Shown here piece by piece: positions 22,806 through 24,420 of a DNA stretch of 32,272 nucleotides; within the stretch, counting starts at the first letter, position 1; each line of letters begins with the position of its first letter. This DNA is from a virus (Duplodnaviria > Heunggongvirae > Uroviricota > Caudoviricetes): positions 1 through 32,272 of the IMG/VR virus record IMGVR_UViG_2737471827_000002; one strand, 5' to 3'. The translations under genes were made by a program, and so were the position numbers. Below the pieces are notes generated by a model. It saw only the letters and a program-made list of their open reading frames with translations. It made no database searches and was not told where the DNA came from.

Positions 22806-23165
22806 CTACCTCCAGATCCGTTGCTGGAATGTGCGGGACGGACACGGTGGCCGTTCAGAGTAAGGAAGCCTGACGGAGATTATCCAGTGCAGGCAGTCAA
22901 GGCTGAGTTCTTTCTGAAACTCGTAACCGCGTCTGCGGTAGCACTGAATTAACCATTTGGCCTGCTCTTCAGTGCATGGATCATGCTGGAACCAGTCAGA
23001 TTTGAATGCATGAGAACGCCGCCCGTGCCTGCTGGCAGGGTCAGCAGAGTTATCCGAATTGTAAAATCTGGTATCGTGCGCCATCAGTTTTCTCTGCTGA
23101 CGCAGCAGGTGCCAGTTGTTCAGGCTGGCGTGCGAATTGTAAACCAGAATGCCATGAAAAAACAA
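22806..23165 (-). CDS. Hypothetical protein (true start probably internal, about 23084)
   Basis: ORF in nin region; 5' end of track ORF overlaps the terminator at 23154-23182, so MAHDTRF... is the more likely start. Confidence 0.4.
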   Translation of the reverse strand: MFFHGILVYNSHASLNNWHLLRQQRKLMAHDTRFYNSDNSADPASRHGRRSHAFKSDWFQHDPCTEEQAKWLIQCYRRRGYEFQKELSLDCLHWIISVRLPYSERPPCPSRTFQQRIWR

Positions 23166-23182
23166 AACCCGCCGAAGCGGGT
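23154..23182 (-). terminator. Intrinsic terminator after the membrane-protein gene
   Basis: Minus-strand RNA: hairpin ACCCGC-TTCG-GCGGGT followed by TTTTGTTTTTT; 22 nt after the stop at 23204. Confidence 0.7.
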
Positions 23183-23203
23183 CTGGTTATTGATGAATTA
23201 ACT

Positions 23204-24022
23204 TCACGGTTTGGGCTGGAAATTCTTATTCAGAGCTCTGCACTGCTCTTTGTCTTCTTCTTCATGGGCTTTAAATACAGAATAAGTATCAGGGTCAAAA
23301 AACGAGATAGATTCCACTTCCCTCTTGGCTACAAGTATCCGAAAGTCTTCAAGGCTAAGGCCGCCAAGACCTTCCGCTACAATTCCTTCTGACTGATAAT
23401 GTCGGCGGTAGTTTGTTGTGATGTTTGTAGTTAACGTACCCTTATCCCGATACCCACTCAACAGCGGAAGAAGTTCAATATGGGTAAAATCGCCGTTTTC
23501 AAAACTTGGGCAGATAACAATTCCAACGTAAAATTTTCTGGATGAGAGTGTTATAATGACGGGAAATTGCCTGACTGCTGCTTCCATAAGGAAGCTCTCT
23601 TCTGGACTTGTGGAAACAATTCTTGCGATAGCATCCAACCTGCGATCCCCTTTCTCTGTTCTTTTTTTGCGCCGCCAACCGCAAAATGCAGCAAGAGCAA
23701 CAGATGTCATTCCCCAGACTGCAGATTTAAGATCCTTTATCGAATTTCCTCCATCAAAAGAGATAGGAAAAACTCTTTTCAGGGCATCAGGACCAAGATG
23801 AAAAAAATGCAGAATACCGTTAATCAACCAGCGGTATACCCCAAGGAAACCAAGGATCGTACAAACAACCCACGCAACACAGACAAAAACAGTTCCCCAG
23901 GTTGCAACAAAAAAATAAGCGTCCCATCCCACAGAACGCTTATACCTATATCTTGTTTCCAAACAAAGAGTAACATAAACATAACCACTAATCAGTATGA
24001 CAGCGATCAATAGCGTATTCAT
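23204..24022 (-). CDS. Polytopic membrane protein with about 150-aa soluble C-terminal domain, unknown function
   Basis: 272 aa; hydrophobic helices at about 3-21, 36-58 and 97-113; AT-rich codon usage unlike flanking phage genes; start 2 nt after stop of the upstream small gene. Confidence 0.7.
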   Translation of the reverse strand: MNTLLIAVILISGYVYVTLCLETRYRYKRSVGWDAYFFVATWGTVFVCVAWVVCTILGFLGVYRWLINGILHFFHLGPDALKRVFPISFDGGNSIKDLKSAVWGMTSVALAAFCGWRRKKRTEKGDRRLDAIARIVSTSPEESFLMEAAVRQFPVIITLSSRKFYVGIVICPSFENGDFTHIELLPLLSGYRDKGTLTTNITTNYRRHYQSEGIVAEGLGGLSLEDFRILVAKREVESISFFDPDTYSVFKAHEEEDKEQCRALNKNFQPKP

Positions 24023-24024
24023 TC

Positions 24025-24231
24025 TTACCCTGGCTTTTTGTTTTCCAATGACTCAAGCTTGTCCAGTTGTTCTTTGATAGCCTTTCTGACCTTGTCGTTC
24101 TCAAGGTTAACCATGATGAAACCATCGTCGCTTACTTCGAACTTATCCTTGTTTTCTTTAAGAACTTTTGACAACCTGTTCGATGGTGTCTGTATGGTTC
24201 CATACCCTCTTATTGCATATGCGAGACTCAT
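24025..24231 (-). CDS. Small hydrophilic protein (68 aa), first gene of the two-gene insertion
   Basis: ORF track 24025-24258; likely start MSLAYAIRG preceded by SD GGGAGG; Lys/Glu-rich C-terminus; AT-rich upstream region 24260-24400. Confidence 0.55.
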   Translation of the reverse strand: MSLAYAIRGYGTIQTPSNRLSKVLKENKDKFEVSDDGFIMVNLENDKVRKAIKEQLDKLESLENKKPG

Positions 24232-24396
24232 TCTTACCTCCCATCTTACCGTTATCACCGTGTAGTGACACTGTTACATCCATGTATAAATGCTTTGATA
24301 CTATGGCTATACCATTAAAATAAGTTTACCGGAAGACTTTGATCAACTACTTTTCACACCAGATACACAAATAATGTGAAACACAACATAGAAATT

Positions 24397-24420
24397 GTCA
24401 AAACCGCCGGGTGGCGGGTG
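24397..24420 (-). terminator. Terminator at 3' end of the hok transcript
   Basis: Minus strand: CCGCC-ACCC-GGCGG followed by TTTT. Confidence 0.5.

Follow-up and report, generated by a model that had tools for sequence, protein, structure and literature searches.

A two-gene prophage cassette encoding a predicted membrane-anchored Sm-like protein and an obligately paired small partner is a candidate phage-defence system

Introduction

The RexAB system of phage lambda exemplifies prophage-encoded defence by a soluble protein paired with a membrane protein, and among membrane-disrupting immune effectors there are some that combine a transmembrane (TM) region with a small β-barrel. One such effector, Cap15 of the cyclic-oligonucleotide-based anti-phage signalling system (CBASS), was reportedly described by Duncan-Lowey in 2021 as consisting of TM helices and a minimal β-barrel that senses a ligand and disrupts the membrane. 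In mycobacteriophage Butters, the soluble and membrane proteins gp30 and gp31 interact and form a pair that provides heterotypic prophage defence (PMC7542560). Here, a two-gene cassette of comparable layout is described at positions 23183-24413 of the IMG/VR record IMGVR_UViG_2737471827_000002, a 32,272-nucleotide caudoviricete sequence that represents an E. coli prophage; its full length is referred to as the window. The cassette spans 1,231 bp on the minus strand and encodes a small hydrophilic protein of 68 amino acids (aa) followed by a 272-aa membrane protein. An anti-phage role appears the most likely one for this pair, because it resides in hotspots of conflict genes, is patchily distributed, has been transferred between unrelated mobile backbones, and has a two-component membrane architecture. 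The more specific reading favoured here, a prophage-carried module of the abortive-infection type in which a membrane effector is held by a small regulator, is given a probability of about 0.35.

Results and Discussion

The first-pass annotation of the window had described an AT-rich insertion with two open reading frames (ORFs), one for a small hydrophilic protein and one for a polytopic membrane protein with about three N-terminal helices and a soluble C-terminal domain, and in these respects the description stands. A sliding check of guanine-cytosine (GC) content gives 0.411 for 23183-24413, whereas the window as a whole has 0.514 and the flanks have 0.49-0.52; the value of the insert is the lowest among all 1,231-bp tiles of the window (fraction at or below, 0.001). 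RefSeq annotates identical coding sequences of 68 and 272 aa, 2 nt apart, both as hypothetical proteins (WP_000050565.1 and WP_001094287.1). The comparison with prophages lacking the insertion, which had been proposed as a check, was made by blastn and MAFFT alignment of the junctions against phage Evi, where the site is empty, and E. coli EBJ003, where it holds other cargo, and it delimits a discrete insert with borders at 23183 and 24413. The empty site reads ...GCACCCGC-ACGTA-ACCCGCTTCGGCGGGTTTT and contains two copies of ACCCGC separated by five bases (ACGTA), the downstream copy being the start of a terminator hairpin; in the window, the ACCCGC repeats bound the site at 23177-23182 and 24414-24419. 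On the minus strand, which carries all features named below unless stated otherwise, the gene order is hok with sok, a 182-nt non-coding stretch, the 68-aa ORF, the 272-aa ORF and a hairpin with a UUCG loop, beyond which lie a rem-like ORF, a DUF968 gene and RusA. Both cassette genes are real and under purifying selection, as their ratios of nonsynonymous to synonymous substitution rates are low, at 0.04-0.09 for the large gene and 0.21-0.30 for the faster-evolving small gene. The cassette is a discrete and mobile accessory cargo insert of foreign composition, a candidate 'moron', that consists of two obligately paired genes.

The pairing holds far beyond the window. The small gene (24025-24231) starts with an ATG at 24231, 5 nt after a Shine-Dalgarno sequence GGAGG read at 24237-24241, and encodes a protein with an isoelectric point of about 9 and no TM segment. 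Translational coupling of the large gene (23204-24022) to the small gene is suggested by the position of its ATG, 2 nt past the small-gene stop codon, and the corresponding gap is -4 to +14 nt in about 90 of the 92 loci of a first locus set, 80 of which are IMG/VR viral contigs; a few loci give a gap of -32 or -38 when starts are called from the longest ORF. Directly upstream of each divergent large homolog lies a gene for a related protein of 62-72 aa with 38-46% identity, and relatives of about 25% identity, as well as those from other phyla, have an ORF of 53-110 aa in the same position that keeps a signature of a Gly-containing hairpin and a C-terminal helix. Two of the first 92 loci are partnerless, one being a frameshifted copy and the other a contig end. 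Across a range that extends from Enterobacterales to Balneola and Acidobacteriota, practically all intact loci examined have a homologous small gene directly upstream, and its product always stands alone, with fusion to another domain never found.

When searched alone, the small protein is orphan-like and returns 4 clusters. Its conserved core reads P-x2-RL-x2-VLK-x-NK ... DG-x-(I/V)-S-x-(N/D)-L and is followed by a C-terminal helix. It matches PHROG 9843, of unknown function, and has no meaningful sequence match in Pfam, NCBIfam or PDB; its sole PADLOC match is a chance-level one to Cas2 (E 0.0027, 15.9 bits). The AlphaFold2 model is an α-β-β-α arrangement of low confidence, with a predicted local distance difference test (pLDDT) score of 62. 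The name 'multidrug ABC transporter ATPase' attached to one 69-aa partner was rejected as a mis-annotation without profile support.

The organization of the two genes bears on a possible role as a toxin-antitoxin (TA)-like addiction module, in which a membrane toxin and a labile small antitoxin would stabilise the prophage or its cargo site. As in type II TA operons, the small gene comes first and abuts or overlaps the larger one; the small protein evolves faster and is poorly modelled, like many antitoxins; and the insertion lies directly beside hok/sok, a membrane-toxin addiction system. There are also a few loci in which the large gene is disrupted and the small gene intact, the reverse never being seen, and this asymmetry was set aside as uninformative, because the fourfold difference in gene length predicts about as much. 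Against an addiction module, the small protein (pLDDT 62) matches no recognisable DNA-binding antitoxin family, and no operator-like palindrome is found upstream. Such a role is considered unlikely in its own right, and it overlaps with the preferred abortive-infection reading, since many TA systems are defence systems.

The 272-aa protein matches PHROG 3630 (E 3e-92), a family of unknown function, and has no sequence match in Pfam, NCBIfam, PADLOC (0 families at E ≤ 1) or PDB. Its membrane region (residues 1-122, 23657-24022) was delineated from AlphaFold2 helices, hydropathy, charge counts and conservation, and comprises TM1 (residues ~2-21), TM2 (~34-60) and a Gly/Ala/Ser-rich TM3 (~99-122). 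In hydropathy plots, the segments corresponding to TM1 (1-23) and TM2 (35-70) are strongly hydrophobic, and the third (~99-117) is weaker and lies under the Kyte-Doolittle cut-off, although it is predicted as a long helix followed by RRKKRTEKGDRR. TM1 and TM2 are connected by a conserved loop, RYxYKRSxGW, that is predicted to be cytoplasmic, and TM2 and TM3 by a loop that spans about 35 aa and contains two short amphipathic helices. A topology with the N-terminus outside and the C-terminus inside, placing the following domain in the cytoplasm, is predicted because the loops RYRYKRS and RRKKRTEKGDRR fit the positive-inside rule.

The C-terminal part of the protein is soluble and is predicted to contain an Sm/LSm-like β-barrel (residues ~140-243, 23294-23605), consisting of an N-terminal helix and a strongly bent five-stranded barrel that superposes on Sm, LSm and Hfq structures in a monomer model with a pLDDT of 78. 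A search of the BFVD structure database returned Sm-like or uncharacterised viral proteins as its sole matches, and at the sequence level the protein matches neither LSM nor Hfq models. The residues that are invariant in the family cluster in the barrel (K163, Y165, G167, P186, S189, G190, R192, Y205 and F242), and its edge strands, ITTNY and SISFFD, rank with the most strongly conserved motifs. Sm, LSm and Hfq proteins form hexameric or heptameric rings, and the conservation of the edge strands would fit strand-to-strand contacts in an assembly of this type. One homolog of the large protein carries the source name 'HrcA', which proved to be a mis-annotation without profile support.

Close relatives of the large protein occur across Enterobacterales and Aeromonas, every one annotated as hypothetical, as are its homologs in four named phages. 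A profile built from the close relatives retrieves 2,817 representatives at 50% identity, nearly all of them 240-300 aa long and matched from end to end, and full-length homology to the window protein extends to the distant members (hhalign probability 100%, E 1e-63). In a scan of reference genomes, the family is found in several gammaproteobacterial orders, Betaproteobacteria, Balneola and Acidobacteriota. A few distant members reach DUF6338 (PF19865) via their N-terminal region, with 30.8 bits for member P0257 (cut-off 26.5) and 25.1 bits for P0246. The window protein itself has no match to DUF6338 at E ≤ 1 and stays below the gathering threshold of 26.5 bits; its connection to that family is transitive, through the hhalign comparison (A3 against A8) with the distant members. 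DUF6338 is an uncharacterised Pfam family comprising membrane proteins of bacteria and archaea, the matches to it are mainly N-terminal, and the literature on it returned a single, unrelated paper that mentions the name.

A further reading is lysogenic conversion, whereby the pair would form a regulated membrane channel or sensor that alters host physiology to the benefit of the lysogen, for example in ion or osmotic homeostasis, envelope stress or RNA handling at the membrane. The predicted layout of the large protein parallels the core of the mechanosensitive channel MscS, and some distant relatives are located among housekeeping genes. Phage cargo sites, moreover, also hold genes with functions other than defence (PMC9122126). 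This reading is judged quite unlikely.

The genomic settings of the pair bear on its role. It is found in two lambdoid backgrounds and in several unrelated cargo sites. The P2 gpA gene lies upstream in about 57 of the 92 loci of the first set, and portal and terminase genes lie downstream in about 53 of the 92; when a second scan is added, gpA and portal flank the pair on both sides in 91 of 169 loci, a count that includes duplicates, the two scans sharing many contigs. The gpA-portal interval is an experimentally shown reservoir of anti-phage systems, and P2 itself carries old and tin there (Rousset et al. 2022, PMC9122126). In short gpA-portal intervals the pair is frequently the sole cargo, and in longer ones it lies beside other genes. 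PADLOC matches are obtained for 9 of the 10 co-cargo proteins scanned and include bSEFIR, a Thoeris-like TIR protein (ThsB), Septu PtuA, a type II-A retron reverse transcriptase, HEC-06/DUF262 and PDC-S15, PDC-S33, PDC-S49 and PDC-S59. In several P2-like prophages, a 477-aa bSEFIR-type protein (PADLOC E 1e-102) lies between the pair and the portal gene, an arrangement that accounts for 8 locus entries over the two overlapping scans.

Outside the lambdoid and gpA-portal settings, the pair is found in Pectobacterium in an islet adjacent to DinI, in Arsenophonus in a P4-like element adjoining a type II restriction-modification pair, and in one further locus after a helicase and a HATPase_c_3 protein. 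Among the neighbours in distant taxa are an integrase, XRE/ImmA, a Schlafen AlbA_2 protein, an SDH-type protease, Fic/Doc, and a RepA-like AAA_25 protein with an excisionase-like helix-turn-helix; these come from ten hand-picked genes that were verified, the crude ORF calls in high-GC contigs being largely spurious. The ClpP-like SDH-type serine protease (PF01972) adjoins the pair on the opposite strand in a Betaproteobacteria metagenome-assembled genome (65 bits, E 7e-18, above the cut-off) and in Balneola sp. (29.2 bits, just below the cut-off of 31.3; E 6e-7), and its adjacency to the pair may be recurrent across two phyla. In loci L178 and L191, the gene directly upstream of the islet with the pair is rpoD as judged by eye, preceded by dnaG in L191, which suggests a recurrent chromosomal integration spot.

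In one class of loci, the pair is located inside the tail module of siphophages, between tail genes and the tape measure gene. This placement, together with the predicted inner-membrane location and the accessory sites of temperate phages, speaks for superinfection exclusion, in which an inner-membrane complex would block genome entry of incoming phages without killing the host, as exemplified by the membrane exclusion proteins SieA of P22, Imm of T4 and gp15 of HK97. The largest and best-conserved part of the large protein is, however, predicted to be cytoplasmic and not periplasmic, and neither protein resembles known superinfection exclusion (Sie) proteins, which to our knowledge are single small membrane proteins without an obligate soluble partner. 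Exclusion without host death is regarded as doubtful.

The P2/186-like phages often place the pair between a Tum/DinI-type gene and the portal gene. Taken with its frequent status as sole cargo of short gpA-portal intervals, this position could point to a function in the cycle of the carrier phage, such as lysis timing, membrane anchoring of replication or packaging, or anti-defence. Most relatives of every backbone examined nonetheless lack the pair, the cassette being rare (10 of the 5,426 complete E. coli genomes, distributed over two lambdoid backbones), and the empty state is the commonest at the window's cargo site in a 60-record sample. The pair is, furthermore, never adjacent to lysis genes, and it moves among unrelated backbones, satellites and non-phage islands. 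A role in the carrier cycle is very unlikely.

In the preferred abortive-infection reading, the large protein would be an inner-membrane protein with three TM helices, an external N-terminus and a cytoplasmic Sm/LSm-like β-barrel, and the small cytosolic partner of about 70 aa would probably be made in fixed proportion to it through translational coupling. The membrane protein would act as the effector, self-assembling via its Sm-like domain, and the assembled effector would perturb or open the inner membrane. The small partner would serve as regulator or sensor, such that the effector, presumably expressed from the lysogen, would be kept silent there and released upon infection. An extended version, in which the pair represents a new and widespread class of two-component membrane immune effectors whose Sm-like ring gathers 18-21 TM helices into a gated pore, with the protein of about 70 aa as plug or trigger, is improbable. 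If correct, such a gated pore would be MscS-like in construction, reached independently or by very distant descent.

The defence role that had been read from the composition and architecture of the insertion thus gains from the recurrence of the pair in established anti-phage cargo sites and falls short in homology to known defence proteins. Profile searches (Pfam, NCBIfam, PADLOC and PHROGs) gave no function-bearing match to either protein, and several points weigh against an abortive-infection module. Neither protein has sequence or profile similarity to a known defence, exclusion, abortive-infection or toxin family, and ten distant family members tested against PADLOC-DB v2.0.0 gave 0 matches. 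Residence in a hotspot is an association that cannot by itself establish defence, since non-defence cargo, namely partition systems and a cytolethal distending toxin, is found in the P2 hotspot as well (PMC9122126). Likewise, because the loci were selected for carrying the pair, its co-occurrence with defence genes cannot serve as a controlled test of enrichment. In terms of structure, the ring and pore are an extrapolation based on a monomer model (pLDDT 78) together with other proteins of the Sm fold, and the role of the small partner is a guess from a model with a pLDDT of 62. The third helix is no more than moderately hydrophobic, and should it fail to cross the membrane, the Sm-like domain would lie in the periplasm and the model would have to be revised. 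Finally, neither a consensus nor a looser scan yields a convincing promoter for the cassette.

The transcription signals around the cassette differ from those in the first-pass annotation, which had assigned it a promoter and a strong terminator of its own. An intrinsic terminator with an 8-bp stem, a UUCG loop and a T-run is present at about 23155-23184 (ΔG -14.7 kcal/mol, z -3.2) and is a good one. The same hairpin also occurs directly after the hok 3′ untranslated region (UTR) in phage Evi and in many insert-free E. coli prophages, and both prophage backgrounds as well as the empty site retain it; it is therefore the ancestral terminator of hok and not specific to the cassette, which is inserted between the hok 3′ UTR and this hairpin and whose transcript it would now end. 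On the opposite strand, a Leu_leader match in Rfam overlies the terminator (23062-23190, plus strand; 25.6 bits against a gathering threshold of 50, E 0.016) and is almost certainly a chance hit to the hairpin and its U-run. Apart from this sub-threshold match, sok is the sole RNA element found with Rfam.

As for the promoter, the proposal fares no better than chance. A scan for consensus σ70 sites found 0 on the coding strand; the region has 1 site in all, located on the opposite strand, compared with a chance expectation of 2.9. The best candidate of the looser scan (24371-24401) has a perfect -35 element, TTGACA, at 24396-24401, combined with poor -10 elements, CACATT at 24373-24378 with a spacing of 17 nt and CATTAT at 24371-24376 with a spacing of 19 nt. 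No convincing promoter, operator, palindrome or RNA element is shared across homologous cassettes, whose upstream regions align poorly, and no inverted repeats or operator-like palindromes were found upstream of the cassette genes. In every cassette examined, 180-310 nt of non-coding DNA precede the small gene, a length that is compatible with a private regulatory region and proves nothing. With respect to the flanking promoter and terminator by which a moron is recognised, the terminator is common to hok and the empty sites, and the promoter candidate does not rise above chance.

The insertion has also affected its neighbour. The complete hok/mok/sok locus (24478-24803) lies directly upstream of the cassette, with hok at 24478-24633 (Pfam HOK_GEF, E 3e-23) and the sok RNA at 24628-24803 (Rfam, 112 bits). 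By separating hok from its ancestral terminator, the insertion left a weaker hybrid hairpin, CCGCC-ACCC-GGCGG followed by UUUU, at 24400-24417 (ΔG -9.3, z -2.0), which the junction alignment shows to be created by the insertion. This second hairpin spans the hok-side junction immediately ahead of the TTGACA element and now probably terminates the hok mRNA, whose 3′ end could be altered as a result.

The site between hok and rem is variable. One or both flanks of the cassette are common to thousands of complete E. coli genomes, and at the DNA level the cassette has no match among deposited phage genomes. The hok-rem junction in E. coli exists in at least five states, namely empty or with inserts of about 0.3, 0.39, 0.67 and 1.23 kb. 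The alternative inserts of about 0.39 and 0.67 kb contain ORFs of 86 and 130 aa, respectively; all the alternative inserts are without annotation and hence uninformative on the function of the cassette. In E. coli EBJ003, the hok-rem cargo is flanked by a duplicated terminator-like sequence. The same cassette is carried by the Stx1d prophage of E. coli C311, in which a β-family protein (PADLOC PD-Lambda-2_C/beta, E 4e-41) and an sce7726/cII-like protein (E 1e-28) are encoded 0.5 kb upstream of hok (6086-7721 of locus L001), a second defence-type pair at that locus; the genes upstream of hok in the window differ from this β/cII-type pair. The prophage in the window is a mosaic that is not represented as a whole in the complete E. 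coli genome collection, as no genome covers 14000-32272 at 80% or more and the best reaches 56% at about 90% identity. Elsewhere in the window, a 176-aa ORF at 25709-26239 has a sub-threshold match to the Pfam family Mom (PF25680; 22.2 bits against a cut-off of 27.1, E 1e-4) and may be a Mom-like DNA-modification gene of the early region.

Comparison with Known Systems

If the pair is anti-phage, a compact (about 1.05 kb of coding sequence) and very widespread module would be added to the defence repertoire, from a family that detection tools (PADLOC 2023) miss entirely despite its presence in the best-studied E. coli defence hotspot. It would provide a new entry point into the gating of membrane damage by small β-barrel domains, and a function would be assigned to a branch linked to DUF6338; if the ring or pore reading also holds, it would demonstrate that Sm-fold rings govern the integrity of the membrane when a phage infects. 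Host range in phage therapy could be influenced by the presence of the pair in prophages of the Stx and P2-like types in E. coli, Salmonella and Klebsiella. The motifs of the family do not appear in the tables of hotspot and tested systems of Rousset et al. 2022 (PMC9122126), one of these tables being covered in part. Literature searches by DUF6338, the RefSeq accessions, a sequence motif, or Sm-like, lambdoid and nin-region defence returned nothing on this family, and no description was found of a defence system in which a membrane anchor of three helices is joined to an Sm-like barrel.

Relative to Sm, LSm and Hfq proteins, the predicted barrel has an insertion of about 20 aa within the domain and is tethered to three TM helices. 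The large protein resembles the MscS core in its predicted external N-terminus, three TM helices with a Gly/Ala-rich third, cytoplasmic Sm-like β-domain, small C-terminal extension and similar length, and the MscS β-domain belongs to the Sm-like superfamily. Membership in the MscS family was nevertheless rejected at the sequence level, there being no Pfam match (PF00924 and relatives) and an hhalign probability of 0.2% against an MscS-family protein.

RexA/RexB and Butters gp30/gp31 share with the cassette the format of a prophage-borne two-gene unit in which a cytosolic protein is combined with a polytopic membrane protein. They differ in that there is no homology, that the soluble partner is here tiny (68 aa) and encoded first, and that the membrane protein bears a large predicted cytoplasmic β-barrel. 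The old and tin genes of P2 occupy the same gpA-portal interval as relatives of the pair, although the proteins are unrelated. Cap15 likewise fuses TM helices to a small β-barrel, and by analogy, a membrane effector controlled by a ligand or partner is plausible for the cassette; in contrast to Cap15, the cassette has no cyclase or other signal-generating enzyme, its predicted barrel has a different fold, and it has no PADLOC match. Taken together, the kind of system, in which a prophage carries a soluble protein and a membrane protein as paired cargo, is familiar, whereas the protein families and the predicted design of three TM helices with an Sm-like domain are not, and the cassette is, as judged from its sequence and settings, a good candidate for a new phage-defence system.

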